DNA of 64,000 nucleotides from Intrasporangium sp. (GTDB lineage Bacteria > Actinomycetota > Actinomycetes > Actinomycetales > Dermatophilaceae), in the NCBI RefSeq assembly GCF_035688975.1, contig NZ_DASSMH010000115.1, positions 41,253 through 105,252 on the forward strand, written 5' to 3'. The position numbers were made by a program, and so were the translations under genes. Of this stretch, positions 3,159 through 62,296 are shown one piece after another (the stretch's first letter is position 1; every line of letters begins with the position of its first letter). A model generated the notes under the pieces. That model ran no database searches and was not told the DNA's origin. It saw only the letters and a list, made by a program, of their open reading frames with translations.

Positions 3159-7315
<4,157 letters not shown>

Positions 7316-9670: not shown

Positions 9671-9826
9671 CCGGGTGCTGCCCTCGCGACGTCGCCTGCC
9701 AGTTGATCCGCCAGTTGATCCGCCAGTAGATCAGTCGCCGATCAACGCGCAGATCAACTGGCGCCGGGTGCTGCCCTGACGACGTCGCCTGCCAGTTGAT
9801 CCGCCAGGAGATCCGCCAGTTGATCA
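9671..9826. repeat. Palindromic 12-mer-array element, copy B (composite, opposite orientation)
   Basis: Two direct modules, each made of core CCGGGTGCTGCCCT(C/G)(G/A)CGACGTCGCCT plus 3x GCCAGTTGATCC-type units (9671-9733 and 9764-9826). They are separated by two inverted units (GCCGATCAACGC GCAGATCAACTGGC). Confidence 0.85.
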
Positions 9827-9857
9827 GCCGTGGGCTGCGAACGCCCGACACGCCTCT

Positions 9858-9947
9858 CTGTCCACAGGCTTCGCCCTCCATCGGCCTGTCCACAGGTGCG
9901 CACCCGCCCCGGAGAAGGCGGCCTCGAACTGGCCCACCCTGTGGACA
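9858..9947. promoter_or_regulatory. Three copies of (C)TGTCCACAGG (two direct, one inverted) upstream of or overlapping the start of the AbiEi/DUF559-like gene
   Basis: CTGTCCACAGG at 9858-9868 and 9886-9896. CCTGTGGACA at 9938-9947, ending at the ATG. This is an 8/9 match to the actinobacterial DnaA box TTGTCCACA and is also a CTGTnnACAG palindrome. Confidence 0.4.
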
Positions 9948-10915
9948 TGGAACTACCCGACCTCCTTCGCGACCTCGTCCATGAGCAGAGCGGCCTCGTG
10001 ACGCGCCGGCAACTGATCGAGGGCGGGGTGCCGCCCGCGATGATTCGCTGGCAGACCGGCCGTCGGTGGCGCTCCGTGCTGCCGGGGGTGATCCTGCTCG
10101 AGTCGTCGCTTCCCACGTGGGATCAGCGCCTTGTGGCCGCACTGCTCGCCGCCGGCCCGAGCTCGTGGCTGAGCGGGACCACCGCCGCCGCCTGGCACGG
10201 CTTGATGGACGGGCGTGAGCGGCTCCCTGTCCATGTCCTGGTGCCTTTCCCGAACCGCAGCCGGCGGATCGGATGGGTCTCCATCCGAGCGACCACCCTG
10301 ACGAACGAGCGCCTCGTGCACCGCGGCCCGCTTCGCATCTCGTGCCGACCGCGCGCCGTCGTCGACGCGGCAGCGCAGGCGCCGGACGAGGCAGCCGCGC
10401 GGGCGCTCGTCATCGCCGCAGTACAGGAGCGACTCGTGCGCGTGGACGACGTGCAGCACTGGCTCGGCGTCCGCCGGCGCAACGGCACCCTGCGCCTCAA
10501 GGCCGCGGTTCGAGAGGCCGCCGCTGGAGCGTGGTCCGTGCCCGAGGCCGAGCTGGCGACGCTGGTGACACGCTCCCGGAGCCTGCCGCCGGTCTGGGCG
10601 AACCCCCAGCTGACCGACCAGGTGGGACGACCGCTCACGACACCGGACCTGTGGTTCGATGATGTGGGCATGGCCGTCATGGTGCACTCCCGCCGCTTCC
10701 ATGGCGGGCAGCTGGACTGGGAAGGCACCGTCGACGCCGACGAGGATCTACGAGCCGTCGGGATCGAGGTCGTCAGCGTCACGCCGTCGGCCATCGGACG
10801 GGAGCCGGCCAAGGTCATGGCCCGCATCGAGTCCGGCCATGCGCGGGCCGCGGCGCGTCCCCGACCCGAGGTCACTGCGGTGCCGCGCGACTTCCTCCGC
10901 AGGGCCAGCGGCTGA
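9947..10915 (+). CDS. AbiEi_4-like N-terminal domain / DUF559 (endonuclease-like) C-terminal domain protein
   Basis: MELPDLLRDLVHEQSGLVTRRQLIEGGVPPAMIRWQTGRRWRSVLPGVILL... is typical of actinobacterial AbiEi-antitoxin-like proteins. The C-terminus ...VMVHSRRFHGGQLDWEGTVDADEDLRAVGIEVVSVTPSAI is DUF559/Vsr-fold-like. GTG 9941 is an alternative start. Confidence 0.6.
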   Translation: MELPDLLRDLVHEQSGLVTRRQLIEGGVPPAMIRWQTGRRWRSVLPGVILLESSLPTWDQRLVAALLAAGPSSWLSGTTAAAWHGLMDGRERLPVHVLVPFPNRSRRIGWVSIRATTLTNERLVHRGPLRISCRPRAVVDAAAQAPDEAAARALVIAAVQERLVRVDDVQHWLGVRRRNGTLRLKAAVREAAAGAWSVPEAELATLVTRSRSLPPVWANPQLTDQVGRPLTTPDLWFDDVGMAVMVHSRRFHGGQLDWEGTVDADEDLRAVGIEVVSVTPSAIGREPAKVMARIESGHARAAARPRPEVTAVPRDFLRRASG

Positions 10916-10930: not shown

Positions 10931-11018
10931 CAATCAACTGGCGGATCAACTGGCGGGTGGTGTTGCCCTGGCAGCAGCGGGTGCCAGTTGATCGGCCAGT
11001 TGATCGGCCAGTTGATCG
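10931..11018. repeat. Palindromic 12-mer-array element, copy C
   Basis: CAATCAACTGGC GGATCAACTGGC, core GGGTGGTGTTGCCCTGGCAGCAGCGGGT, then 3x GCCAGTTGATCG. Starts 16 nt after the upstream stop codon. Confidence 0.88.
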
Positions 11019-11033
11019 CGGGCCGGGGCGGGG

Positions 11034-11196
11034 CGGTCGCGTGGGTGGGGAAGGGGGCGGCCATCGCGGGCGGGGACGGGGCTGCCATCGCGGGCGGGGA
11101 CGGGGCGGTCGCGTGGGCGGGACGGGGCGGCCATCGCGGGCGGGGACGGGGCGGCGGCGCGGGCGGGGACGGCCCTGCCATCGCGGGCGGGATCGG
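11034..11196 (+). repeat. G-rich tandem repeat of about 24 bp, about 7 copies (GCCATCGCGGGCGGGGACGGGG-type)
   Basis: Successive units are read at 11034, 11058, 11082, 11106, 11128, 11152 and 11173. Each carries GGG/GGGG tracts on the + strand. The array ends 19 nt before the amidohydrolase ATG. Confidence 0.8.
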
Positions 11197-11214: not shown

Positions 11215-12303
11215 ATGAGTGCACCGGTGCTTCGTGTCCGTGGTCAGGTGCTCGTCGGACCGGAGGACGTGCGCGACGAGCTCTGGGTCATCGGCGGCAA
11301 GGTCTCGTTCTCACCGCCCGCGTCGGACGCGGACGTGCAGCAGCTCGACGGGTGGGTGCTGCCGGGTCTCGTCGACGCGCACTGTCACATCGGCCTCGGC
11401 CCCCACGGCGAGGTCAGTCGCGAGGAGACCGAGCAGCAGGCGATCACCGACCGCGAGCACGGCACGCTCCTCGTGCGCGACGCGGGCCAGCCGGGGGACA
11501 CCCGGTGGATCGACGCCCGCGAGGACCTGCCCAAGATCATCCGCGCCGGGCGCCACATCGCCCGGACCCGCCGCTACCTGCGCAACTACGCCCACGAGGT
11601 CGAGGAGTCAGAGCTCGTGCAGCACGTCCGGCTCGAGGCGCACCGTGGCGACGGCTGGGTCAAGCTCGTCGGCGACTGGATCGACCGGGAGGTCGGCGAC
11701 CTCGCCCCGTCCTGGTCCCGTGCGGTCGTCGCCGACGCCGTCGCGGCCGCCCACGAGGAGGGGGTCCGGGTCACAGCCCACTGCTTCGGTGAGGAGTCGC
11801 TGCGGGACCTTGCCGCCGCCGGCATCGACTGCATCGAGCACGCGACCGGGCTGCAGGAGGACTCGATCGACACCTTCGCGGCCCAAGGCATCGCCATCGT
11901 GCCGACCCTGGTCAACATCGCCACGTTCCCCAGGCTGGCGCAGCCCGCCAAGGCGAAGTTCCCCCGCTACCACCGGCACATGCTCGACCTGCACGAGCGC
12001 CGCTACGCCACGCTCGGGGCCGCCCACGAGGCGGGCGTGCCGATCTACGTCGGCACGGATGCCGGGGGAAGCCTGCCGCACGGGCTCGTCGCGCAGGAGA
12101 TGGCCGAGCTGACGCGAGCCGGCCTGTCGACCCTCGAGGTCCTGGCCGCCGGCACGTGGGCCGCCCGCGACTGGCTGGGCCGGCCCGGCCTCGTCGAGGG
12201 CGCCGACGCCGACCTCGTCGTCTACGGCGCCGACCCGCGCCACGACATCAGCGTCGTCGCCGACCCCAAGGGCGTCGTGCTGAGGGGCCGCGTTGTCCGT
12301 TGA
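11215..12303 (+). CDS. Metal-dependent amidohydrolase family protein
   Basis: MSAPVLRVRGQVLVGPEDVRDELWVIGGKVSF, the DAHCHIG metal-binding motif, HCFGEE and GTDAGG. Same position after ffh as amidohydrolases in other actinobacteria. The track start at 10957 would add a repeat-derived Gly/Arg tail and is rejected. Confidence 0.8.
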   Translation: MSAPVLRVRGQVLVGPEDVRDELWVIGGKVSFSPPASDADVQQLDGWVLPGLVDAHCHIGLGPHGEVSREETEQQAITDREHGTLLVRDAGQPGDTRWIDAREDLPKIIRAGRHIARTRRYLRNYAHEVEESELVQHVRLEAHRGDGWVKLVGDWIDREVGDLAPSWSRAVVADAVAAAHEEGVRVTAHCFGEESLRDLAAAGIDCIEHATGLQEDSIDTFAAQGIAIVPTLVNIATFPRLAQPAKAKFPRYHRHMLDLHERRYATLGAAHEAGVPIYVGTDAGGSLPHGLVAQEMAELTRAGLSTLEVLAAGTWAARDWLGRPGLVEGADADLVVYGADPRHDISVVADPKGVVLRGRVVR

Positions 12304-18332: not shown

Positions 18333-19061
18333 ATGGCCACCTCCTCCCGGAAGCCCTCGCTGCGCGTCGAGCGTGAGCTGCAGCGACAGGGCCACCGACT
18401 GCTCGCCGGCATGGACGAGGTCGGCCGCGGCGCCCTCGCGGGGCCGGTGAGTGTCGGCGTCGTCGTCATCGACGAGGCGGTCCGGTCGGCTCCGGTCGGC
18501 GTCAAGGACTCCAAGCTGCTCACCGGACGGGCGCGTGCCGGCCTCGTGCCACGGATCCAGCGGTGGGCGGTGGCGCACGCCGTCGGGCATGCCGGCCCCG
18601 ACGAGATCGACGCCATCGGCATTCTCGCCGCGCTGCGCGTCGCCGGCATCCGCGCCCTCGCCGCGCTGGGCGTCGCGCCCGACCTCGTCATCCTCGACGG
18701 CAACCACGACTGGCTGACCGCCCCGACGGATGTGGGGCTGCTCGCCTTCACGGGGGACCGACCCGTCACCCCACCGGTCGTGACGATGATCAAGGCGGAC
18801 CTGCGGTGCTCCAGCGTCGCGGCCGCCAGCGTCCTCGCCAAGGTGGAGCGCGACGAGCTCATGGTCGGGCTCTCGGCGCACCACCCGGCATACGGGTGGG
18901 GTCTCAACAAGGGGTATGCCGCTCCCGAGCACCTGGACGCGCTGTCCCGGCTGGGGCCGTGCGCACTGCATCGCCGCTCGTGGCGGCTGCCGGGCGTCGT
19001 GGACCACAATGAGTGGCAGGACCTCGCCCCCGGCGAGCAGACAGAAACGGCGGTTCGGTGA
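18333..19061 (+). CDS. rnhB: Ribonuclease HII
   Basis: [22 protein letters not shown] (DEVGRG motif), DSKLL, and [15 protein letters not shown] near the C-terminus. Confidence 0.93.
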
Positions 19062-19378
19062 GCTCTGAAGACCTCGAGAAGTACGAGACCGAGATGGAGC
19101 TGCAGCTCTACAAGGAGTATCGCGACGTCGTCGGCCTCTTCACCCACGTCGTCGAGACGGAGCGCCGCTTCTACCTCGCCAACTCCGTCGACGTGAAGGT
19201 GCGCACCGACGGCGGGGAGGTCTTCTTCGACGTGACGATGGCCGACGCGTGGGTGTGGGACATCTACCGACCGGCGCGTTTCGTCAAGAACGTGCGGGTG
19301 ATCACGTTCAAGGACGTCAACGTCGAGGAGCTGCCCAAGCCCGACATCAAGCTGCCGGAGTCCGGCGACTTCTCCTGA
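19058..19378 (+). CDS. DUF2469 family protein
   Basis: The GTG overlaps the rnhB stop (GTGA). [41 protein letters not shown]... is highly conserved in actinobacteria at this locus. Confidence 0.88.
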
Positions 19379-19469
19379 GGTCCACAGCGAACATCCACAC
19401 CGAGGGTCCACAGCGAACATCCACACCGAGCGTCCACACCGAGCCGGGCGGGACGCGCGTCGTCCACAG
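19379..19469 (+). repeat. Array of six same-strand TCCACA (DnaA-box-core-like) motifs; five lie at a strict 13-bp period (26-bp unit x2 plus a half unit)
   Basis: GGTCCACAGCGAACATCCACACCGAG at 19379-19404 is repeated perfectly at 19405-19430. CGTCCACACCGAG follows at 19431-19443, and GTCCACAGGG at 19462-19471. Confidence 0.85.
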
Positions 19470-19519
19470 GGCCTGCAGGGCGGTGACCGCGCAGGCGCCG
19501 CCGGCCGCAGGCTGGTGGC

Positions 19520-19909
19520 ATGGACTCCCTTCCCAGCCGCATCCTCGGTGACTACGGCGAGCGCCTCGCCTGCCGGTATCTGACCGACCGGGGGCTGACC
19601 GTCCTCGACCGCAACTGGCGCTGCGCGCGGGGCGAGATCGACATCGTCGCCGAGGACGGCGGCTGCATCGTCATCTGCGAGGTGAAGACCCGCAGCTCCG
19701 AGCAATTCGGCGCCCCGTTCGAGGCCGTCACCCAGCGCAAGGTCCGACGGCTCCGACGCCTCGCCGGGCTGTGGCTCGAGACGGGTCGGTCGCCGGCCGA
19801 GGGGACCGGGCGCTCGGTGGCGCCCGGTGGCCTGCGGATCGACGTCATCTCGATCCTCTGCGCACCCGGCGCACCGGCCCGCCTCGAGCACCTGCGCGGC
19901 GTGTCGTGA
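19520..19909 (+). CDS. yraN: YraN family (UPF0102) endonuclease-like protein
   Basis: GERLACRYLTDRGLTVLDRNWRCARGEIDIVAEDGGCIVICEVKTR... is the typical YraN core. Confidence 0.9.
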   Translation: MDSLPSRILGDYGERLACRYLTDRGLTVLDRNWRCARGEIDIVAEDGGCIVICEVKTRSSEQFGAPFEAVTQRKVRRLRRLAGLWLETGRSPAEGTGRSVAPGGLRIDVISILCAPGAPARLEHLRGVS

Positions 19910-21456
19910 GCGGGTTGGGGCGCACCATGGCGGTCGGGCTGCGCGGCGTGACCGGCTTCCTCGTCGACGTCGAGGCGCACGTGTCCCAAGGACTGCCGTC
20001 GTTCGTCATCAGCGGCCTCGGCGACTCCGCCGTCGCGCAGTCGCCGGGGCGGATCCGGGCGGCCGCGTCGGCCCTGGCGCTGCCGGCGAGCCAGCGGCGG
20101 ATCACGGTCAACCTCTCGCCCGCGGGCGTGCGCAAGACCGGGCCGGGGTTCGACCTGGCGATCCTCGTCGCGGTGGCGGCCGCCATGGGCGCCGTGCCGC
20201 AGCGCGTCGTCTCCGACGTGCTGCATCTCGGCGAGCTCGGGCTCGACGGTGCGGTCCGCGGGGTCCCGGGGGTGCTGCCCGCCATCCACGCGGCCGCGCA
20301 GGAGGGCGTCCGGCACGTCGTCGTCCCGGTCGCGAATGCCGCGGAGGCCCGCCTCGTCTCCGGCGTCCAGGTGCACCCGGTCGCCGACGTGGCCGAGCTG
20401 ATGCAGCGCTACGCCAACCTCGCGCGAGGCCGGCCCGTGGTCGAGGTGCCCGTGCCGCCCTCGCGGGAGCCGGCGTCGCCAGCCACGGGGATGGACCTCG
20501 CCGAGGTGCTCGGCCAGGCGGAGGCGAAGCTGGCCCTGGAGATCGCGGCGGCCGGTGGGCACCACCTGCTCATGGCGGGGCCGCCCGGGGCGGGCAAGAC
20601 GATGCTCGCGGAACGGTTGCCCGGCCTGCTGCCGGGCCTCGACGAGCCTCGGTCCATGGAAGTGACGGCCATCCACTCCGTGCTGGGCGTCCTCGGCGAC
20701 GACGTGCGGCTCATCCGGCGGCCGCCCTTCGTCGCCCCACACCACGGAGCGTCGACGGCTGCCGTCATCGGCGGCGGCAGCGGGCGGATCCGCCCCGGTG
20801 CCGTCACGCAGGCCCATGCCGGGGTCCTCTTCCTCGACGAGACGCCCGAGTTCGACAAGAACGTCCTGCAAGCGCTGCGGACCCCCCTCGAGCGCGGCAC
20901 GGTGACTATCGCCAGGGCCGCGGAGACGGTCACCTTCCCAGCCCGCTTCCAGCTGGTCCTCGCCGCGAATCCCTGCCCGTGCGGCCACGGGTGGGGCAAG
21001 GGGCTGGACTGCACCTGCACCCCGCTCCTGCGCCGCAACTACTTCGGCAAGCTCTCCGGGCCCCTGCTCGACCGCGTGGACCTGCAGGTCCACGTGCAGC
21101 CGCCGGGTCTCACGTCCGCGGGACAGGCGCCGGGCGAGACCACCGCCACGGTGGCGGCGCGCGTGGCGCAGGCGCGGGCGGCCCAGCGCCACCGGTGGGC
21201 GGCTGCCCGTCGGGCCGTCGAGCTCAACAGCGAGGTCGCCGGCTCGGTCCTGCGCGAGCCGCCCTGGCGGCTACCGCGCCTGGACACCGCCCCGCTCGAC
21301 CGGGCGCTCGAGCTGGGGTCGATCAGCCTGCGCGGATACGACCGCACGTTGCGCGTGGCGTGGACCATGGCGGACCTCGTGGGGCTGACCCGCCCGGTCC
21401 GCGAGCAGGTGGACCTGGCGCTCTCCTTGCGGCGGCAGGCGGCGGTGGCGGCATGA
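19906..21456 (+). CDS. comM: Mg-chelatase-like AAA+ ATPase YifB/ComM family
   Basis: The GTG overlaps the yraN stop. Lon-like N-domain, Walker A GPPGAGKTMLA, GVLFLDE and a Cys-rich insert (CPCGHGWGKGLDCTC). ATG 19927 is an alternative start. Confidence 0.9.
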   Translation: MSGLGRTMAVGLRGVTGFLVDVEAHVSQGLPSFVISGLGDSAVAQSPGRIRAAASALALPASQRRITVNLSPAGVRKTGPGFDLAILVAVAAAMGAVPQRVVSDVLHLGELGLDGAVRGVPGVLPAIHAAAQEGVRHVVVPVANAAEARLVSGVQVHPVADVAELMQRYANLARGRPVVEVPVPPSREPASPATGMDLAEVLGQAEAKLALEIAAAGGHHLLMAGPPGAGKTMLAERLPGLLPGLDEPRSMEVTAIHSVLGVLGDDVRLIRRPPFVAPHHGASTAAVIGGGSGRIRPGAVTQAHAGVLFLDETPEFDKNVLQALRTPLERGTVTIARAAETVTFPARFQLVLAANPCPCGHGWGKGLDCTCTPLLRRNYFGKLSGPLLDRVDLQVHVQPPGLTSAGQAPGETTATVAARVAQARAAQRHRWAAARRAVELNSEVAGSVLREPPWRLPRLDTAPLDRALELGSISLRGYDRTLRVAWTMADLVGLTRPVREQVDLALSLRRQAAVAA

Positions 21457-22547
21457 CCGACGAGCGACGGGCGAGAGCTGCCCTGAGCCGGCTCGTCGAA
21501 CCGTGTGACGCAACCGTCGCGGCGCTGCTGGACCGGGTCGGGGCCGTGGAGGCCGTCGAGCGAATCCGGTGGGCGGCCAAGGGGCTCGAGCGCTTCGCCG
21601 CCCGGGTGGAGCGGCTCGACGTCGACCAGGACCTCGCCAACGGCGCCCGGATCGGGGCGCGTGTCGTCATCCCCGGAGACGACGAGTGGCCGGCGCGGCT
21701 CGACGACCTCCCGATCCCGCCGTGGTGCCTCTGGGTCCGCGGACCGCTGGAGCTCGGGGCGGGCCTGCGCCGGTCGGTGGCGGTCGTGGGCGCGCGGATC
21801 TGCACCCCCTACGGTGAGCACTTCGCGGCCGAGCTCGGTGCCGCGCTCGCCGGCCGTGGCTGGGCGGTGGTCTCGGGCGCGGCCTTCGGGATCGACGCGG
21901 CGGCGCATCGTGGCTGCCTCGCGGTCGACGGCACCACCGTGGCGGTGCTCGCCGGCGGCATCGACCGCGTCTATCCCGCCGCCCACGGGCAGCTCCTGCA
22001 GCGCATCCTCGACCGGGGCGCCTGTGTCTCCGAGGTGGCACCGGGATCCGCGCCGATGAAGAGCCGTTTCCTGCACCGCAACCGGCTGATCGCGGCGCTG
22101 ACCGCCGGCACGGTGGTCGTCGAGGCGGGGCTGCGGTCCGGCTCCCTCAACACCGCGCGTCACGCCACCGCGCTGCTCCGTCCGGTCGCCGCCGTGCCCG
22201 GGCCGGTCACCTCGATGAGCTCGGCCGGCTGCCACCAACACATCCGGTCGGGCGAGGCGGTCCTCGTCACGAGCGCGGCGGAGGTCATCGAGCTCGTCGG
22301 CGACGTGGGCGTCGACGCGTGCGAGGAGCCGAGCGGGCCGGTGCTGGCCGCCGACCACCTGCCGCCGGCCGAGGCGGGCGTCCTCGAGGCCCTGCCGGTG
22401 CGCGGCTCCATGGACCTCGACGGCCTCAGCGTCCTGACGACGTTGGCGCCCCTCGCGGTCCGAGCGGCGCTGGCCCGGCTCGAGGACCTCGGCCTCGCCG
22501 TCGCCGAGGAGGGCCGTTGGCGCAAGGCCCGAGCGCGCCGCTCCTGA
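21453..22547 (+). CDS. dprA: DNA-processing protein DprA (Smf)
   Basis: The ATG overlaps the comM stop (ATGA). Rossmann-like DprA core (VAVVGARICTPYGE..., SGAAFGIDAAAHRG, FLHRNRLIAAL) and a C-terminal winged-helix-like tail. Confidence 0.9.
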   Translation: MTDERRARAALSRLVEPCDATVAALLDRVGAVEAVERIRWAAKGLERFAARVERLDVDQDLANGARIGARVVIPGDDEWPARLDDLPIPPWCLWVRGPLELGAGLRRSVAVVGARICTPYGEHFAAELGAALAGRGWAVVSGAAFGIDAAAHRGCLAVDGTTVAVLAGGIDRVYPAAHGQLLQRILDRGACVSEVAPGSAPMKSRFLHRNRLIAALTAGTVVVEAGLRSGSLNTARHATALLRPVAAVPGPVTSMSSAGCHQHIRSGEAVLVTSAAEVIELVGDVGVDACEEPSGPVLAADHLPPAEAGVLEALPVRGSMDLDGLSVLTTLAPLAVRAALARLEDLGLAVAEEGRWRKARARRS

Positions 22548-22609: not shown

Positions 22610-23566
22610 TCAGGCGCGGGGATGGGCCTGCTCGTAGCTGCGACGCAGCCGATCCACGGAGACGTGGGTGTAGATCTGGGTCGTCGCGAGGCTGGCATGG
22701 CCGAGGAGCTCCTGGACGTCCCGAAGGTCCGCGCCGCCTTCGAGCAGGTGCGTGGCCGCACTGTGGCGCAGTCCGTGGGGCCCGAGGTCCGGCGCGTCGG
22801 CGACCTGCGTGAGCAGCGCATGCAGGACGGCCCGGACCTGGCGGGCGTCCACGCGCCGGCCCCGCCGCCCCAGGAAGAGAGCGGAACCCGACGTGGCCGT
22901 GGAGAGGCGCGGGCGGACCGCGAGCCACTCCTCGAGGGCCCGGGCGGCCGGGGCCCCGAACGGCACCACCCGCTCCTTGGCCCCCTTGCCCATGACCCGC
23001 ACCACGCGCTGGCCGAGGTCGAGGTCATCGACGTCCAGCGCGACGAGCTCGCCCACCCGGATCCCGCTTGCGTAAAGCAGCTCGAGCACCGCCCGGTCCC
23101 GGGCGTGCACAGGGTCGCCGTCGTCGGCCCGCACCGCGGCGACGTCGAGGAGCGTGCCCGCCTGGTCCTGCCGCAGCACGCCGGGCAGCGTCCGGACGCG
23201 CCTTGGCGCGACGAGGCGCAGAGACGGGTCCCGCTCGACCCGGCCGGTCGAGTGGGCCCAGGAGAAGAACGTGCGCGCGGAGGCCGCCCGGCGGGCGAGC
23301 GTGGCCCGGGCGGCGCCGCCGGCGGCCTGGTCACCGAGCCACGCGCGCAGGTCGGCGAGCCGGATGTCCCCCGCACCGGCCAGCCCCCGCCCGGCCACGA
23401 AGGCGAGCAGGTGACGAACGTCTCCGAGGTAGGCGCGCCGGGTGTGCTCGGACCGGCCACGCTCGGCTCCGAGGTGCCGGGAGAAGGCGTCGAGCAGGGC
23501 GGCCTGCGACGACTCGCGCGCGGCCATCGCAGCCGAGCCGTCAGCGCCGTCCGACAGACCTGCCAT
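22610..23566 (-). CDS. xerC: Tyrosine recombinase XerC
   Basis: The N-terminal SAM-like domain has the typical XerC/D opening ([31 protein letters not shown]). Catalytic residues lie in ...[39 protein letters not shown]. Conserved neighbour of dprA. ATG 23527 is an alternative start. Confidence 0.88.
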
Positions 23567-23669: not shown

Positions 23670-24218
23670 TCAGAGAGGGCGGAGGGGGAGCAGCCTGATC
23701 GGCCGTGGCATGAGCAGGCTGAGCGGGTCGAGGTAGTCGTGGCCGCGCAGCACGCCCCAGTGCAGGCACGCGCGCGGCGCGCAGTGGCCCGCTGCCGGGG
23801 CGACGCGCCCGATGGCCGCGCCACCGGCGACGAGGGTCCCGACCGGTGGCGGGCCGGTGACCGGCTCGAAGGTGCTGCGCAGCCCTCCGGCGTGGGTGAC
23901 CACGACCACGCCGCGACCGGCCAGCAGGCCGGTATACGTGACCCGCCCCGCGCCCGGAGAGAGGACCGCCTGCCCGGCCGTGGCCTCGAGGTCGACCCCG
24001 CGGTGGCCGGGGGACCAGCGGTGCTCGGGCCGGTCGAAGGCTCTCGCCACCGCCGGGCGGGGGGAGAGCGGCCACTGCCACCCGCGGCTCGTGCCGGCCC
24101 CCGAGGGCTCGCCGGCGTCGGCGGCGAGGCTCCCCACGGTGGCGGAAGCACCCCCGAGCGCGACCACCGTGGCGGTGAGCGCCGTGGCGAGGGCGAGAAC
24201 GGCCGTGCCGATGGGCAT
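23670..24218 (-). CDS. M23 family metallopeptidase (secreted or membrane-anchored)
   Basis: An N-terminal hydrophobic segment, then HRGVDL, AGRVTY and LHWG, the LytM-type motifs. The track start at 24371 would overlap the convergently read upstream gene, so ATG 24218 is preferred. Confidence 0.8.
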
Positions 24219-24309
24219 GTCGGCCACGCTAGGCGCGTCCCGCGTCGGCCGGGCGACCGATGCCGCGGCGGTGGACGACGCGCTGACGTGGTCGTCGCCC
24301 TGTGGACGC

Positions 24310-43361: not shown

Positions 43362-43437
43362 GATCAGCCCTTCACGCCCCTCAGGGCCATGGTCGCGCGG
43401 CAGCCTCCGCAGGGGTAGGGGCCAAGGTCCCGCCCGT

Positions 43438-43515
43438 CTCAGCGGTGGTTCTCAGTGGTGGTTCTCAGTGGTGGTTCTCAGCGGTGGTTCTCAGCGGTGG
43501 TTCTCAGAGGTGGTT
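43438..43515. repeat. 13-bp tandem repeat x6 (CTCAG(C/T/A)GGTGGTT)
   Basis: Six contiguous units. The last supplies the final codons and TGA stop of the aminotransferase on the - strand. The array lies 77 bp upstream of the deacetylase start codon. Confidence 0.9.
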
Positions 43516-44946
43516 CTCCGCCTCCGTGAGCACCGACCGCAGCCGCGACTCCATCTCGTCGAACTGCTCCGGGCCCATCGTCAGCGGCGGCGCGAGCTGC
43601 ACGACGGGGTCGCCGCGGTCGTCGGCGCGGCAGTAGAGCCCCGCGTCGAAGAGCGCCTTGGACAGGAAGCCGCGCAGCAGCCGCTCGGCCTCTGCGTCGT
43701 CGAAGGTCTCGCGCGTCGCCTTGTCCTTGACCAGCTCGATCCCGTAGAAGTAGCCGGCGCCGCGGACGTCGCCCACGAGCGGCAGGTCGAGCAGCCGCTC
43801 GAGCGTGGCGCGGAACGCCGGGGCGTTGTCCTTAACGTGCTGGGTCAGGCCCTCGCGCTCGAAGATGTCGAGGTTGGCCATGGCGACGGCCGCCGAGACG
43901 GGGTGGCCGCCGAAGGTGTAGCCGTGCGGGAAGTACGTCGTGCCGTGCCGGAAGGGCTCGAAGAGCCGGTCGCTCGCGATCATCGCGCCGATGGGGGAGT
44001 AGCCGCTCGTCAGCCCCTTGGCGCAGGTGATGATGTCGGGCACGTAGCCGAAGTCGTCGCAGGCGAACATCGAGCCGATCCGCCCGAAGGCGCAGATGAC
44101 CTCGTCGGAGACGAGCAGCACGTCATGCGCGTCACAGATCTCGCGGACCCGCTGGAAGTAGCCGGACGGCGGCGGGAAGCAGCCGCCCGAGTTCTGCACC
44201 GGCTCGAGGAAGACCGCCGCGACGGTGTCCGGCCCCTCGAACTCGATCGCCTCGGCGATGCGGTCCGCGGCCCACCGGCCGAAGGCCTGCTCGTCGTGTC
44301 GCAGGTGCTCCGGTGCCCGGTAGGCGTTGGTGTTGGGCACCTTGAACGCGCCGGGCACGAGCGGCTCGAACATCTCCTTGGCGGCCGGTATGCCGGTGAT
44401 GGACAGGGCTCCCTGCGGGGTGCCGTGATAGGCGACGGCGCGGGAGATGACCTTGTGCTTCGTCGGCCTGCCCGTCAGCTTGAAGTACTGCTTGGCCAGC
44501 TTCCACGCCGTCTCGACCGCCTCGCCGCCACCCGTGGTGAAGAAGACCCGGTTGAGGTCGCCGGGAGCGTATGCCGCGAGCCGCTCGGCGAGCTCGATCG
44601 CGCTCGGGTGCGCGTAGGACCAGAGCGGGAAGAACGCCAGCTCGCGGGCCTGGCGTGCGGCCGCCTCGGCGAGCTCCTCGCGGCCGTGCCCGACCTGGAC
44701 GACGAAGAGCCCGGCGAGGCCGTCGATGTACTCGTTGCCACGGTCGTCCCAGAGGGTCCAGCCACGGCCTCGGGTGATGACCGGGACCGAGTGCCCCAGT
44801 CCGCCCGCCGAGCCGGGCTCCTCGAAGACCGAGTGCCGCGTGAAGTGCATCCACAGGTGGTCGCGGGCCGCCTGGGCGTAGGTGGCGCCGGTGCGGGTGG
44901 ACCGGTCGGACTCCGGCTCCCACACGTCGTTCGGGTCGACGGTCAT
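43504..44946 (-). CDS. Class III PLP-dependent (omega/GABA/putrescine-type) aminotransferase
   Basis: GNEYIDGLAGLFVVQVGHGR, FFTTGGGEAVETAWK, LLVSDEVICAFGRIG and TCAKGLTSGYSPIG (PLP-Lys). Confidence 0.88.
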   Translation of the reverse strand: MTVDPNDVWEPESDRSTRTGATYAQAARDHLWMHFTRHSVFEEPGSAGGLGHSVPVITRGRGWTLWDDRGNEYIDGLAGLFVVQVGHGREELAEAAARQARELAFFPLWSYAHPSAIELAERLAAYAPGDLNRVFFTTGGGEAVETAWKLAKQYFKLTGRPTKHKVISRAVAYHGTPQGALSITGIPAAKEMFEPLVPGAFKVPNTNAYRAPEHLRHDEQAFGRWAADRIAEAIEFEGPDTVAAVFLEPVQNSGGCFPPPSGYFQRVREICDAHDVLLVSDEVICAFGRIGSMFACDDFGYVPDIITCAKGLTSGYSPIGAMIASDRLFEPFRHGTTYFPHGYTFGGHPVSAAVAMANLDIFEREGLTQHVKDNAPAFRATLERLLDLPLVGDVRGAGYFYGIELVKDKATRETFDDAEAERLLRGFLSKALFDAGLYCRADDRGDPVVQLAPPLTMGPEQFDEMESRLRSVLTEAENHL

Positions 44947-49613: not shown

Positions 49614-49737
49614 CGAACGGCTGGCGGATCAGCTGGTGGATCAACCGGCGAATCAGCTGGTGGATCAACTGGCGGATCAACTGGCGTCTGATGTCGTCAG
49701 GGCAGCAGCAACGGCCAGTTGATCTGCCAGTTGATCG
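49614..49737. repeat. Palindromic 12-mer-array element, copy D
   Basis: Five left units (GGATCAGCTGGT GGATCAACCGGC GAATCAGCTGGT GGATCAACTGGC GGATCAACTGGC), core GTCTGATGTCGTCAGGGCAGCAGCAACG, then two right units GCCAGTTGATCT GCCAGTTGATCG. Confidence 0.88.
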
Positions 49738-60835: not shown

Positions 60836-62296
60836 GTGCACAGCGGCCACCCGCACCGTGGAGGCATGAGCGCAGGAGTCGTCACCGAGCCGCACGGCAT
60901 ACCCGTGCCGTCCCCCGCCCGTGCTGCGCTGCCGAGGCTGCCGAGGCCCGTGCCCCTCTGGTGGCGGGACGTGTCCGGCGCGCTGGCGTGGGGGCTCGTC
61001 CTCTTCGTCGTCGGTCTCTGGGTGGCGGGTGGCGGGCTTACCGCCTTCGGCACCACCGGCGACGCCATGACGACCCTCGGTCGACTCGCCGGCCTCCTCT
61101 CCTCCGTGCTCATCCTGATCCAGGTGCTGCTCATGGCCCGGATCCCCATGGTCGAGCAGGCCTGGGGACAGGACGAGCTGGCGCGGGTCCACCGCGTCGT
61201 CGGGTTCACCAGCTTCAGCCTCATGCTGGCCCACATCGGGCTGGTCATCGTCGGGTATGCCGCCGGCACGAGCCTCGGCGTGGTCGGCACCTTCGTCGAC
61301 CAGGTGCTGCACTCGCCCGGCATGCTGCTCGCCCTTGCCGGCACCGTGGCCCTCGTCATGGTCGTCGCCACCTCGATCCGCAAGGCGCGCGCGAGGCTGC
61401 GCTACGAGTCCTGGCACCTGCTGCACCTCTATGCCTACCTCGGCGCCGGGCTGGCGCTGCCGCACCAGCTGTGGACGGGCCAGGACTTCCGGTCGAGCGC
61501 CGTGGCCACCGTCTTCTGGTGGGGCCTGTATGCCGCCACGCTGGCCGCCGTCCTCGTCTTCCGCCTCGCCCTGCCGGCCGTCCGCTCGGCGAGGCACCGC
61601 CTCGTCGTGGCGGACGTCGTCGCCGAGTCGCCCACGGTCACGAGCGTCGTCATCACCGGGAGGGCGCTCGAGCGGCTGCCCGCGCGGGCCGGGCAGTTCT
61701 TCCAGTGGCGCTTCCTCGACGGGCCCGGGTCGAGCCGGGCCAAGCCCTTCTCCCTGTCGGCCGCACCGGACGGGCGCAGCCTGCGCCTCACGGGTGAGGC
61801 CGTCGGCCCGGGGTCCGGCCGGCTTCGCAGTCTCCGCCCCGGCACGAAGGTGCTGCTCGAGGGTCCCTACGGCCGGCTCCACGCAGGCACCAAGGTCCGG
61901 CAGCGAAGCGTGCTGATCGGCGCCGGCATCGGGATCACGCCGCTGCGGGCCCTCCTCGAGGAGCTGCCGGCGGGGCCGGACGAGACCGTGCTCATCTACC
62001 GGGTCGGCAGCACCGAGGACATCGTCCTCGCCGACGAGCTCGTCGAGCTCGCTCGCTCCAAGGGCGCCCGCGTCGTCGCCGTCGTCGGTCACCGGGCGCC
62101 CGACCGTGACAGCTGGCTGCCCGCGCAGCTCGGCCACCTCGGGGACGCCGAGGCGCTGCTGCGCATCGTTCCCGACGTGGCGCAGCGTGACGTCTTCGTC
62201 TGCGGCAACCCCGCGTGGATGCGGTCCGTCATGGGGGCGGCCCGCGCGGCGGGCGTGCCGGAGCAGGCCCTGCACTCCGAACGCTTCAGCTACTGA
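60836..62296 (+). CDS. Ferric reductase-like transmembrane domain fused to an FAD/NAD(P)-binding (FNR-like) domain
   Basis: 6-TM haem-binding-type domain (HRVVGFTSFSLMLAHI, HLLHLYAYLGAGLALPHQLW). Then RPFSLSA, GPYG and GAGIGITP motifs. Start uncertain (GTG 60836 or ATG 60866). Confidence 0.8.
   Translation: MHSGHPHRGGMSAGVVTEPHGIPVPSPARAALPRLPRPVPLWWRDVSGALAWGLVLFVVGLWVAGGGLTAFGTTGDAMTTLGRLAGLLSSVLILIQVLLMARIPMVEQAWGQDELARVHRVVGFTSFSLMLAHIGLVIVGYAAGTSLGVVGTFVDQVLHSPGMLLALAGTVALVMVVATSIRKARARLRYESWHLLHLYAYLGAGLALPHQLWTGQDFRSSAVATVFWWGLYAATLAAVLVFRLALPAVRSARHRLVVADVVAESPTVTSVVITGRALERLPARAGQFFQWRFLDGPGSSRAKPFSLSAAPDGRSLRLTGEAVGPGSGRLRSLRPGTKVLLEGPYGRLHAGTKVRQRSVLIGAGIGITPLRALLEELPAGPDETVLIYRVGSTEDIVLADELVELARSKGARVVAVVGHRAPDRDSWLPAQLGHLGDAEALLRIVPDVAQRDVFVCGNPAWMRSVMGAARAAGVPEQALHSERFSY

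Follow-up and report, generated by a model that had tools for sequence, protein, structure and literature searches.

The spacer between a DUF2469 gene and yraN in an Intrasporangium genome holds a tight row of DnaA-box-like sequences, and the question that it raises is whether these serve the replication initiator, a regulator of the genes downstream, or nothing at all. In the 64,000-nucleotide stretch of DNA analysed here (the window), six TCCACA cores lie on the plus strand at positions 19381, 19394, 19407, 19420, 19433 and 19463, exactly where the initial annotation had placed them, the first five being 13 bp apart and the sixth lying 30 bp beyond the fifth. The explanation that we favour, with modest confidence, is that this array is a recent, lineage-specific amplification within the two-box operator of a competence-type regulon, with DnaA as the probable reader of the boxes. 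Such a regulon has not been described for the phylum Actinobacteria.

The Array and Its Gene Neighbourhood

The array begins immediately 3′ of the stop codon (TGA, 19376–19378) of the DUF2469 gene, a Pfam-supported reading frame on the plus strand that is given here as 19061–19378 but whose start is uncertain (19013 or 19061). On the far side of the spacer, on the same strand, stand yraN (UPF0102; 19520–19909), comM, which encodes a Mg-chelatase-like AAA+ protein and overlaps yraN by 4 bp (19906–21456), and dprA, which overlaps comM by 4 bp (21453–22547). Pfam confirms rnhB, DUF2469, UPF0102/YraN, Mg-chelatase/ComM and DprA at the locus, and the ATG of yraN at 19520, the first possible start of its reading frame, agrees with the source gene calls in contigs L001 and L087–L089.

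TRF resolves positions 19379–19442 of the plus strand into 2.5 copies of the 26-bp unit GGTCCACAGCGAACATCCACACCGAG (94% matches, score 114) or, in an alternative reading, into five copies of a 13-bp sub-unit (76% matches), which bears out the proposal that the 13-bp periodicity comes from a duplicated 26-bp unit followed by a half unit. A 25-nt core of that unit occurs in two exact copies, at 19380 and 19406, where none would be expected. TCCACA itself is not enriched across the window (20 occurrences against 19.0 expected), so the excess is local. Near-identical units stand head-to-tail here, as they do in VNTR-type loci.

Measured against TTGTCCACA, boxes 1 to 6 match at 7, 6, 7, 6, 7 and 8 of nine positions; a uniform match of 7 of 9 had been claimed, which holds for boxes 1, 3 and 5 and fails for boxes 2 and 4 (6 of 9) and for box 6 (8 of 9). 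The first four, all on the plus strand, are AGGTCCACA at 19378–19386, ACATCCACA at 19391–19399, GGGTCCACA at 19404–19412 and ACATCCACA again at 19417–19425, lying 82, 69, 56 and 43 bp, respectively, from the sixth. Box 5 is GCGTCCACA (19430–19438) and box 6 is TCGTCCACA followed by a G (19460–19469); for reasons given below, these two are called the distal and the proximal box.

Contig L001, from an independent Logan assembly, has the entire spacer in identical form, and the array is therefore no assembly artefact of the window's record. L001 is probably the same strain and so is silent on variation in copy number; apart from it, YraN identity falls to about 70% even in the closest relatives. 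A search of Rfam with positions 18800–19800 gave no match at E ≤ 1, the folding z-score of the spacer (−0.38) does not suggest a structured RNA, and a scan for sigma-70 and terminator consensus sequences, which is tuned to E. coli-like promoters and so is uninformative here, found nothing. A mobile-element origin finds no support, there being no phage match and one weak, chance plasmid match.

A Conserved Two-Box Module Upstream of yraN

Conservation in relatives divides the array in two: boxes 5 and 6 are kept, and the array as such is absent from all 59 other yraN-upstream regions searched, so that it is unique among 60 loci. The relatives carry instead two TTGTCCACA(G)-type boxes on the same strand, of which the first is homologous to box 5 and the second to box 6, and the perfect TTGTCCACA found at these homologous positions upholds the assignment of the window's boxes to the DnaA-box type. 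The ancestral distal box sits in the last 13-mer of the array, and the first four copies are specific to the window's lineage.

The pair is found in about 55 of the 60 yraN-containing loci, which span several actinobacterial orders. Perfect 9/9 boxes number 38 in the yraN-upstream regions and none in 297 kb outside them, and boxes that match at 8 or more of nine positions are 37 times denser upstream of yraN than elsewhere. In all nine loci where other genes part DUF2469 from yraN, the pair stays with the 5′ end of yraN; because the boxes track yraN in this way, the DUF2469 gene is without functional tie to them.

The geometry of the pair is equally regular. Box-to-box spacing is 17–20 bp in 25 loci, 28–33 bp in 25 and 40–41 bp in three, with classes centred at about 18.5, 30 and 40.5 bp, almost nothing between them, and steps from class to class of one helical turn. 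In 54 of 55 loci a NANNNT hexamer lies at offset 47–50 from the proximal box, against a background of 0–1 per offset, and it lies there in 80 of 100 high-GC pairs drawn from metagenomes. This fixed distance of 47–50 bp to a putative −10 element would centre the proximal box near −56, in promoters that are mostly leaderless. The reading frames downstream of the metagenome pairs start mostly at offset 59–62, and the starts behind the modules concur with independent gene calls. When 176 modules were pooled, no conserved −35 emerged, the stretch from the box to the −10 being without conserved positions. Within the box, positions 4–9 are 95–100% invariant across orders and positions 1–3 are variable, with position 2 being C in 17 of 19 Micrococcales-like genomes (the window's included) and T in 23 of 24 Pseudonocardiales; the G directly after the proximal box is 87% conserved.

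In the window, the offset from the proximal box (48) points to CAGGCT at 19508–19513, on the plus strand, as the −10 hexamer. The ATG of yraN lies 7 nt past it, from which a leaderless transcript is inferred; the proximal box would then cover about −60 to −51 and the distal box, 30 bp away from start to start, about −90 to −82. Distances to the proximal box of 43, 56, 69 and 82 bp put the four extra boxes outside the conserved spacing classes. The suggestion that the array is operator-like and lies in the promoter region of yraN-comM-dprA is thus supported in respect of the pair, with its fixed distance from the −10. A fixed and helically phased operator without a conserved −35 is the layout of a class-I-like promoter, and the module may accordingly be predicted to work as an activator-dependent promoter of class-I type, with activation rather than repression as its probable mode.

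The Same Module at Other Genes

The module is not confined to yraN. The window has three instances of the composite of boxes and −10, where 0.08 would be expected, before yraN-comM-dprA, an M23 peptidase gene and an AbiEi-like gene, the latter two having been reached through a mild enrichment of GTCCACAG (nine occurrences against 2.6 expected). At the AbiEi-like gene (9947–10915, plus strand), which encodes a wHTH protein with a Vsr/homing-endonuclease-like C-terminal module and which we count as a regulon member, boxes CTGTCCACA lie 28 bp apart at 9858–9866 and 9886–9894, followed by a putative −10, CACCCT, at 9935–9940 (offset 49) and an apparently leaderless ATG at 9947. An inverted box on the minus strand, ATGTCCACA at 9940–9948, covers the −10 and the start and is found in the window only; the module as a whole is degenerate before the I. 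oryzae orthologue and absent in Terracoccus. The third module is on the minus strand, where the distal box GCGTCCACA (24309–24301) and the proximal box TCGTCCACC (24278–24270), 31 bp apart, precede a putative −10, TAGCGT, at 24231–24226 (offset 47) and the M23 peptidase gene (23670–24218), again with an apparently leaderless ATG, at 24218; xerC lies 3′ of that gene on the same strand (about 22610–23540). This module is kept in three relatives, I. calvum, Terrabacter and I. oryzae. The module is also conserved in seven Micromonosporaceae loci, and it precedes comM in two lineages.

In metagenome sequences, sampled for perfect pairs at 18–19 bp and with related lineages possibly recurring, the genes behind the pairs encode Ssd/CpaE (7), YraN (7), AbiEi-like proteins (6), RecA (5), CpaB (5), ComEA (3), SSB (2), prepilin peptidase (2), FtsK-like proteins (2) and SbcD (1), and the M23 peptidase is also among them. 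The module is therefore a cis-element common to DNA-receptor/channel, pilus, DprA, RecA and SSB genes, as one would look for in the operator of a competence regulon. A divergent HTH gene was looked for beside the cpaB and ssd modules and was not found. In the literature we found no earlier description of the motif, in either orientation, or of a link between DnaA and yraN, and co-mention of the mycobacterial orthologues gave no prior description of the regulon.

Two further sites in the window, at 61469 and at 4572, where a PII-like gene begins a short way downstream, are without the module architecture and are treated as chance matches. The multi-box arrays in L116, L171, L177, L104 and L148 were likewise set aside as low-GC or iteron-like repeats of unrelated organisms, outside the regulon. 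At L098, the upstream neighbour resembles an FmdB-type zinc-ribbon gene, as judged from its translation.

These observations can be drawn together in a model. The ancestral element would be two TTGTCCACA(G)-type boxes, both on one strand, before a promoter that lacks a −35 and is mostly leaderless, with the proximal box near −56 and the distal box one, two or three extra helical turns upstream. A very conserved DNA-binding protein would bind the two boxes from the same side of the helix and contact RNA polymerase, most simply as a class-I-type activator; we propose that this protein is DnaA, acting as a transcription factor. The module would thereby drive yraN-comM-dprA and serve as the cis-element of a DNA-uptake and recombination (competence-type) regulon across Actinobacteria. 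In the window's lineage, the distal box would have been amplified by a 13-bp and then a 26-bp duplication, leaving four extra copies that are probably weak, out-of-phase sites and that may raise local occupancy or be neutral.

The Reader of the Boxes

Which protein reads the boxes is a less certain part of this model. In M. tuberculosis and S. coelicolor the high-affinity DnaA box reads TTGTCCACA (PMC4285127, Table 1); the window's boxes conform to it at 6–8 of nine positions and those of relatives often at all nine, and this identity with the actinobacterial consensus makes DnaA the most probable reader, though as a candidate on which we put about even chances. The G that follows the box is found in the same place after R1 and R4, the two 9/9 boxes of E. 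coli oriC, and DnaA is known to regulate the transcription of genes for DNA repair and nucleotide synthesis (PMC11317965, PMC8203912). Also in favour of DnaA, the invariance of positions 4–9, with positions 1–3 variable, implies a reader with a very conserved DNA-binding domain. A full statement would be that DnaA directly activates comEA/EC, the Tad pilus, dprA-comM-yraN, recA and ssb throughout Actinobacteria, from two phased boxes, one at about −56 and the other at about −75, −86 or −97; in a variant, a dedicated competence regulator has evolved to recognise the exact DnaA box. This reading remains tentative, somewhat short of an even bet.

The spacing tells against DnaA. ChIP-seq in E. coli found DnaA outside oriC at double boxes with a gap of 2–3 bp, and a single additional base pair in the gap strongly cuts binding (PMC11317965); the gaps here are 9–10, 20–22 and about 31 bp (4 bp in the array), so they depart from a rule that is drawn from E. 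coli and may not be actinobacterial. This misfit leaves room for a dedicated factor, as does the lineage-specific base at position 2, which could mean that such a factor, rather than DnaA, has co-evolved with its site. No dnaA/dnaN neighbourhood occurs among the 120 retrieved box-pair loci, and tblastn with E. coli DnaA had no hits in the 1.14 Mb of retrieved DNA.

The same module and regulon could then be read by a highly conserved regulator other than DnaA, an account that we rate as possible but rather doubtful. Its leading candidate is the orthologue of Micrococcus luteus Mlut_14660, a small BldC-like protein of the HTH_17/excisionase family, although some other factor that mimics the DnaA box as its site is possible; either would bind each asymmetric 9–10-bp box as a monomer and oligomerise head-to-tail. 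Almost all mutations that de-repress comEA/EC in M. luteus fall in Mlut_14660 or its 5′UTR, and the gene adjoins a cpaB-cpaE operon (PMC8467076), the kind of operon that stands directly behind the boxes here. BldC belongs to that protein class; it binds direct repeats that are 9 bp long and asymmetric, in a head-to-tail arrangement, and its footprint at whiI, −50 to −80 (PMC5859096), is the promoter zone of the boxes; its optimal repeat, read by us on the opposite strand of the printed sequence, is TTGTCCGAA, which has TTGTCC in common with the box. A dedicated factor would also suit the lineage-specific position 2 and the spacing unlike that of DnaA, and the regulon is functionally coherent in the manner of the ComK or Sxy/CRP-S regulons.

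Set against this, the consensus is a DnaA box at nine of nine positions, and at ten of ten with the G of E. coli R1 and R4, an agreement hardly to be expected of an unrelated protein. In BldC operators the repeats are contiguous, with a 9-bp period, and need an AT-rich AATT element, whereas the boxes are GC-rich, not contiguous and without AATT, and the spacings of 29–31 and 40–41 bp are not multiples of 9. In M. luteus, Mlut_14660 behaves as a repressor (PMC8467076), while a −10 at constant distance and a missing −35 suggest activation. No HTH_17 gene adjoins the boxes in the inspected loci, and tblastn with a BldC sequence, here a weak probe, had no hits in the 1.14 Mb. The AbiEi-like wHTH and nuclease-like protein was also considered as the reader and judged unlikely, because its wHTH diverges across lineages while the core of the box is invariant.

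Titration, MtrA and the Extra Copies

DnaA could also be bound to no transcriptional end. The initial annotation had raised the idea of a chromosomal DnaA-titrating or reactivating locus, an analogue of datA, DARS or the Bacillus DBC that would tune initiation, and it is true that several same-strand DnaA-box-like sites lie within 90 bp, that relatives hold perfect consensus boxes at the homologous site, and that B. subtilis clusters of DnaA boxes outside oriC modulate initiation (PMC3245932). The evidence nonetheless runs heavily the other way, and we regard this role as very improbable. A conserved multi-box cluster that is independent of the neighbouring promoter was not found: the ancestral state is two boxes, which alone are conserved, and the other four are confined to the window's lineage. 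The window's boxes are weak matches (6–8 of 9), the 4-bp gaps of the array misfit the E. coli double-box rule of 2–3 bp, and IHF-type or other accessory features were not identified. A pair that is locked to the −10 and found again at many promoters of a single functional class behaves as an operator, and this tells against titration of the datA/DARS type as it does against sites for MtrA.

The latter, an OmpR-family response regulator, had been named as another possible occupant, for which the superficial resemblance of GTCCACAGCG to the mycobacterial GTCACAgcg and the presence of an M23 peptidase gene in the regulon might be adduced; cell-wall hydrolases are typical MtrA targets. The MtrA motif from ChIP-seq, however, consists of GTnAC-type 9-mers in direct repeat with a 2-nt gap and an 11-bp period (PMC6265350), and it fits neither the box nor its spacings. 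GTCCAC in the box has an additional base that is 98–100% conserved, no partner half-site lies 11 bp away (the spacings being 18–19, 29–31 and 40–41 bp, and 13 bp in the array), and comEA, recA, dprA and the pilus genes do not belong to the MtrA regulon. Of all the accounts, we give this one the least credence.

A different matter is whether the four extra copies do anything. They may be without function, the product of a neutral, VNTR-like slipped-strand expansion in a genome where short tandem repeats readily arise, with boxes 5 and 6 the only ones that matter; this concerns the amplified part alone, is compatible with the amplified-operator explanation, and strikes us as evenly poised. That the 26-bp duplication is perfect points to a recent event, no second array is seen among the 60 loci, many other intergenic tandem arrays with 12–13-bp units occur in the window, and the extra boxes match at 6–7 of nine positions and, at 43, 56, 69 and 82 bp, belong to none of the conserved spacing classes. 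On the other hand, the sub-units of the older, 13-bp duplication have drifted apart (8 of 13 positions identical) with TCCACA intact in every copy, which hints at selection on the core, and at a purD-like promoter in three metagenome loci a conserved box is joined by a third box at a distance of 13 bp.

Implications

[quoted passage not shown] For the control of competence in actinobacteria, the module offers a sequence motif, a promoter geometry and a predicted regulon that covers comEA, Tad-pilus genes, yraN-comM-dprA, recA, ssb, sbcD and the M23 peptidase gene in several orders, and together these make the question directly testable. Should DnaA prove to be the protein that reads the boxes, replication initiation would be linked to horizontal gene transfer in a new way, and if it acts as the activator, DNA uptake and recombination would be coupled to the state of the replication initiator; were a dedicated regulator to recognise the exact DnaA box, cross-talk with oriC during competence would follow. 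The poorly understood yraN/UPF0102, AbiEi-like wHTH-nuclease protein and DUF4192 gain a regulatory context, and the module may offer a practical route to induced transformability in industrially and medically important actinomycetes.

Comparison with Known Systems

The array by itself resembles MIRU/VNTR-type repeats, in that a short sequence is perfectly duplicated in tandem between two genes, probably through slippage, but differs from them in that its unit carries a conserved regulatory box. Like datA and DARS of E. coli and the B. subtilis DnaA-box clusters, it is a cluster of DnaA-box-like sites away from oriC; in contrast to these, its ancestral element is two boxes, tied to a promoter and found at many promoters, and the multi-box state is confined to one lineage.

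The module is comparable to DnaA-regulated promoters such as E. coli dnaA, nrdAB, purH and polA and those of the B. subtilis DnaA regulon, where, as here, the 9-mer is the DnaA-box consensus of the lineage and paired sites lie near promoters of DNA metabolism; R1 and R4 of E. coli are followed by the same G. It departs from these promoters in its helically phased spacing of 18–19, 29–31 or 40–41 bp in place of a 2–3-bp gap, in its fixed distance to the −10 and activator-like position near −56, and in a DNA-uptake and recombination regulon that is unreported for DnaA. With BldC-type operators and Mlut_14660 it has in common asymmetric 9-bp direct repeats in the −50 to −80 zone and, for the latter, a genetic link to comEA/EC expression and the cpaB-cpaE operon, whereas BldC repeats are contiguous and AT-rich (AATTxxxxC) and Mlut_14660 is genetically a repressor.

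In architecture, a further parallel is the ComK K-box of Bacillus subtilis, in which two AT-boxes stand one, two or three helical turns apart upstream of competence promoters. Both are two-site operators upstream of a core promoter with spacing quantised in helical turns, and the ComK regulon likewise includes comEA, recA, ssb, dprA, pilus and prepilin-peptidase genes. The sequence of the module is nevertheless unrelated, its boxes are direct, asymmetric repeats, it belongs to another phylum, and no ComK homologue is implicated.

The TCCACA array and its setting

The spacer between the DUF2469 gene (stop at 19378) and yraN (ATG at 19520) holds a tandem array at 19379-19442, in which TRF detects 2.5 copies of a 26-bp unit, GGTCCACAGCGAACATCCACACCGAG, with 94% matches, and which it also parses as five 13-bp sub-units. 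The array lies within the order lepB, lepB, rnhB, DUF2469, array, yraN, comM, dprA, the last three genes being joined by 4-bp overlaps, and its spacer is identical in an independent Logan contig. Six TCCACA cores on the plus strand (19381, 19394, 19407, 19420, 19433 and 19463) and a duplicated 26-bp unit had been described in the initial annotation, and both are borne out by TRF and by a repeat search of the window, which returned the unit as an exact duplicate. The boxes (9-mers of DnaA-box type with a TCCACA core, numbered 1-6 from 5′ to 3′) had also been said to match at 7/9 positions, which is right for boxes 1, 3 and 5 and wrong for the rest: against TTGTCCACA, boxes 1-6 score 7, 6, 7, 6, 7 and 8 out of 9. 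Since TCCACA is not enriched window-wide (20 found, 19.0 expected), the excess is local and the 13-bp period is a product of tandem duplication.

Two other arrays were noted. One, at 43437-43518 (TCTCAGCGGTGGT x6.3, 95% matches), also has a 13-bp period, is apparently intergenic and has a unit unrelated to the TCCACA array; the other, in a metagenome contig (L104 1308-1400), has TCCACA every 9 bp in at least nine copies of CTGTCCACA/TTGTCCACA, forming a contiguous DnaA-box-like array.

An ancestral pair of boxes

The source genome is from the Intrasporangiaceae/Dermatophilaceae, and its nearest YraN relatives, in Intrasporangium, Humibacillus and Terrabacter, are only ~70% identical. A check for conservation of the 26-bp unit found the array missing from the syntenic spacers of five relatives, which carry instead two same-strand boxes, (T/C)(T/C)GTCCACA(C/T)C upstream and GCCGTCCACAGCC downstream, 29-30 bp apart start-to-start (41 bp in Humibacillus). 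The pair corresponds to window boxes 5 and 6 (19433 and 19463), which start 30 bp apart.

The survey was widened to 80 DUF2469-encoding loci, one genome per species, from Micrococcales-like genomes, Pseudonocardiales, Streptosporangiales, Micromonosporaceae, Geodermatophilaceae and Mycobacteriales MAGs. The pair is present in ~55 of the 60 loci with yraN in reach, many boxes being perfect TTGTCCACA, and wherever genes intervene between DUF2469 and yraN (nine loci), it remains at the yraN 5′ end. Perfect boxes number 38 upstream of yraN versus 0 in the other 297 kb of locus DNA, and boxes matching at 8/9 or better are 37 times denser in yraN-upstream regions than in the remaining locus DNA. Box positions 4-9 (TCCACA) are 95-100% conserved while positions 1-3 vary, and a G directly follows the proximal box in 87% of loci. 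Spacing falls into three classes, with 25 loci at 17-20 bp, 25 at 28-33 bp and 3 at 40-41 bp; two further loci lie outside them. Because the steps are ~11 bp, helical phase is kept.

Promoter geometry

A NANNNT hexamer starts 47-50 bp past the proximal box in 54 of 55 loci, with 0-1 occurrences at other offsets. In the window this putative −10 is CAGGCT (19508-19513, plus strand), followed 6 nt later by the yraN ATG, the earliest possible start of that ORF; independent gene calls in I. calvum, Terrabacter and I. oryzae likewise place the yraN and M23 peptidase starts 60-61 bp from the proximal box. If the hexamer is a leaderless −10, the proximal box would occupy about −60 to −52 and the distal box would be centred near −75, −86 or −97. 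No position between box and −10 is conserved across 176 pooled modules, hence there is no −35, and a fixed, phased upstream site in such a promoter would usually point to an activator in contact with RNA polymerase. The boxes may nevertheless mediate repression rather than activation, as BldC represses whiI from −50 to −80 (PMC5859096).

Genes behind the module

A composite was required to combine a proximal box matching at 7/9 or better with NANNNT 47-50 bp past it and a second box upstream at one of the allowed spacings. The window has three, versus 0.08 expected from block shuffles (maximum 1 in 100): the yraN-comM-dprA promoter (plus strand); boxes 9858/9886 before the leaderless ATG (9947) of an AbiEi-like gene; and, on the minus strand, boxes 24309/24278 with TAGCGT and ATG 24218 of an M23 peptidase gene, then xerC. 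Three 20-kb loci from relatives carry composites with an upstream box only at yraN and at the M23 peptidase gene. Among the 80 genome loci, secondary modules that had not been selected for stand before the M23 peptidase gene in seven Micromonosporaceae and before comM in two lineages. A site at 4570-4579 (TCGTCCACAGG), immediately upstream of the PII (glnB-like) gene start, was judged a chance match because it has neither a partner box nor a −10 at the module offset.

When metagenomes were scanned for TTGTCCACA-N9-10-TTGTCCACA, 120 loci were returned, a sample biased to perfect pairs at 18-19 bp in which related lineages may recur. Among high-GC pairs, 80 of 100 have a −10 at offset 47-50, and most ORFs begin at offset 59-62. 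Downstream genes encode Ssd/CpaE_hom_Actino (7), YraN (7), AbiEi-like proteins (6), RecA (5), CpaB (5), ComEA (3), SbcD (1), and SSB, FtsK/SpoIIIE-FHA, prepilin peptidase A24, DUF4192 and SocA/Panacea (2 each), as well as M23 peptidase, TilS, TsaB and PurD-like proteins. With DNA receptor, pilus, DprA, ComM, RecA and SSB, this would essentially be a natural-transformation regulon; in M. luteus the pili used for transformation are of the Tad/Flp type (PMC4322843). We infer the functions of boxes and regulon alike from sequence. Of the readings first offered for the array, that of an operator in the yraN-comM-dprA promoter gains support, as a two-box element common to a regulon, and for the same reason a DnaA-titrating or reactivating site (datA/DARS/DBC) does not.

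Several observations concern individual members. Upstream of the PurD-like gene, three metagenome loci (L094 7122-7165, L107 1745-1790, L163 1881-1925) have TTGTCCACA-N10-TTGTCCACAGGCAAGATCCACA with a third box 13 bp past the second, after which come a −10 of the form TAGNNT and a conserved GGGCACTGGGCCGCCCCCGGGATCGGGTGG segment; in E. coli, DnaA is likewise bound upstream of purH, a purine gene (PMC11317965). The window's xerC (~22610-23540, minus strand) is co-directional with the M23 peptidase gene. In I. calvum, Terrabacter and I. oryzae, xerC instead follows dprA on the plus strand, which suggests that a local inversion in this genome moved it behind the dual-box M23 promoter.

The AbiEi-like gene (9947-10915; 322 aa, 55-74% identity across Intrasporangiaceae) is a recurrent regulon member. 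Its product is predicted to join an N-terminal AbiEi-type wHTH to a C-terminal Vsr/homing-endonuclease-like module (AF2 pLDDT 87.6), with Foldseek matches to Rv2827c, S. agalactiae AbiEi and I-Bth0305I. A third, inverted box, ATGTCCACA (9940-9948, minus strand), overlaps the −10 and start codon; it is absent from seven metagenome AbiEi-like promoters and so lineage-specific, and may serve auto-limitation by the same regulator. Dispersed over the window, at least four times (1713-1842, 9698-9829, 10933-11018, 49621-49736), is a palindromic element of 2-5 tandem 12-bp GCCAGTTGATC(N) units that face inverted GATCAACTGGC(N) across a conserved ~30-40 bp spacer (core ggtgctgccct / cagcaccac). As I. 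oryzae and Terracoccus luteus also have it ahead of their AbiEi-like genes (L210 1300-1385, L211 1225-1425), it is a family-wide REP/MITE-like repeat. Directly past one copy, before an ORF starting near 11216, a G-rich array (11015-11191; 24-bp unit ATCGCGGGCGGGGACGGGGCGGCC x7.5, also periods 46, 70 and 93) has the potential to form G-quadruplexes.

Which protein reads the boxes

DnaA is a serious candidate regulator and the likeliest single reader, at roughly even odds. The box consensus is identical to the DnaA box bound with high affinity in M. tuberculosis and S. coelicolor (PMC4285127 Table 1), E. coli oriC R1 and R4 (both 9/9) also have G after the box, and a core invariant across orders requires a reader with a very conserved DNA-binding domain. 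DnaA is, moreover, known to regulate transcription of repair and nucleotide-synthesis genes, with a preference for sites in pairs (PMC11317965, PMC8203912). However, paired boxes of E. coli DnaA need a 2-3 bp gap, one added bp strongly weakening binding (PMC11317965), whereas the gaps here are 9-10, 20-22 or ~31 bp; position 2 is C in 17/19 Micrococcales-like genomes and T in 23/24 Pseudonocardiales; and none of the retrieved box-pair loci is a dnaA neighbourhood.

A dedicated factor, such as a protein of the Mlut_14660 type, is a further candidate, to which we give a smaller yet substantial share of probability. Mlut_14660 is a small, probably essential HTH_17/excisionase-family protein whose gene adjoins cpaB-cpaE, and nearly all M. 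luteus mutants that de-repress comEA/EC map to it (PMC8467076); BldC, of the same class, reads asymmetric 9-bp direct repeats head-to-tail (PMC5859096). Yet BldC repeats are AT-rich and adjoin without gaps, and by its genetics the M. luteus protein is a repressor (PMC8467076). Beside the dual-box cpaB promoter of a long metagenome contig (L098 2313-2651 and neighbours) there is no HTH_17 gene, unlike in M. luteus. From ORF translations inspected by eye, we take the genes upstream of CpaB there to be galU, 5-formyltetrahydrofolate cyclo-ligase and an FmdB-type zinc-ribbon; the next gene in the run is SAF/CpaB (Pfam-confirmed). The remaining probability falls to other readers. MtrA, first proposed as an alternative, is excluded on motif and spacing, both of which differ (PMC6265350), and the wHTH of the AbiEi-like protein is too variable between lineages for an invariant core.

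The extra copies

This genome alone among 60 loci has more than two boxes, beyond an occasional degenerate copy. The duplication of the 26-bp unit is perfect and recent; that of the 13-bp sub-unit is older and retains 8/13 identical positions, with TCCACA intact in every copy. Distances from the extra boxes to the proximal box are 43, 56, 69 and 82 bp; none fits the conserved classes, for which extrapolation gives ~40.5, 51, 62, 73 and 84 bp, and the 4-bp gaps of these boxes misfit the E. coli double-box rule. The extra copies may be weak sites that increase local occupancy or simply neutral products of slippage; 12-13-bp intergenic tandem arrays are abundant in the genome.

Relation to known systems

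The searchable literature yielded no description of the motif, module or regulon, and a 2026 paper calls the M. luteus competence regulon unknown (PMC12849477). Both regulons and operators built from DnaA boxes are familiar; one in which two phased DnaA boxes govern DNA-uptake genes throughout a phylum would be a new variation on them, of high practical and conceptual interest.
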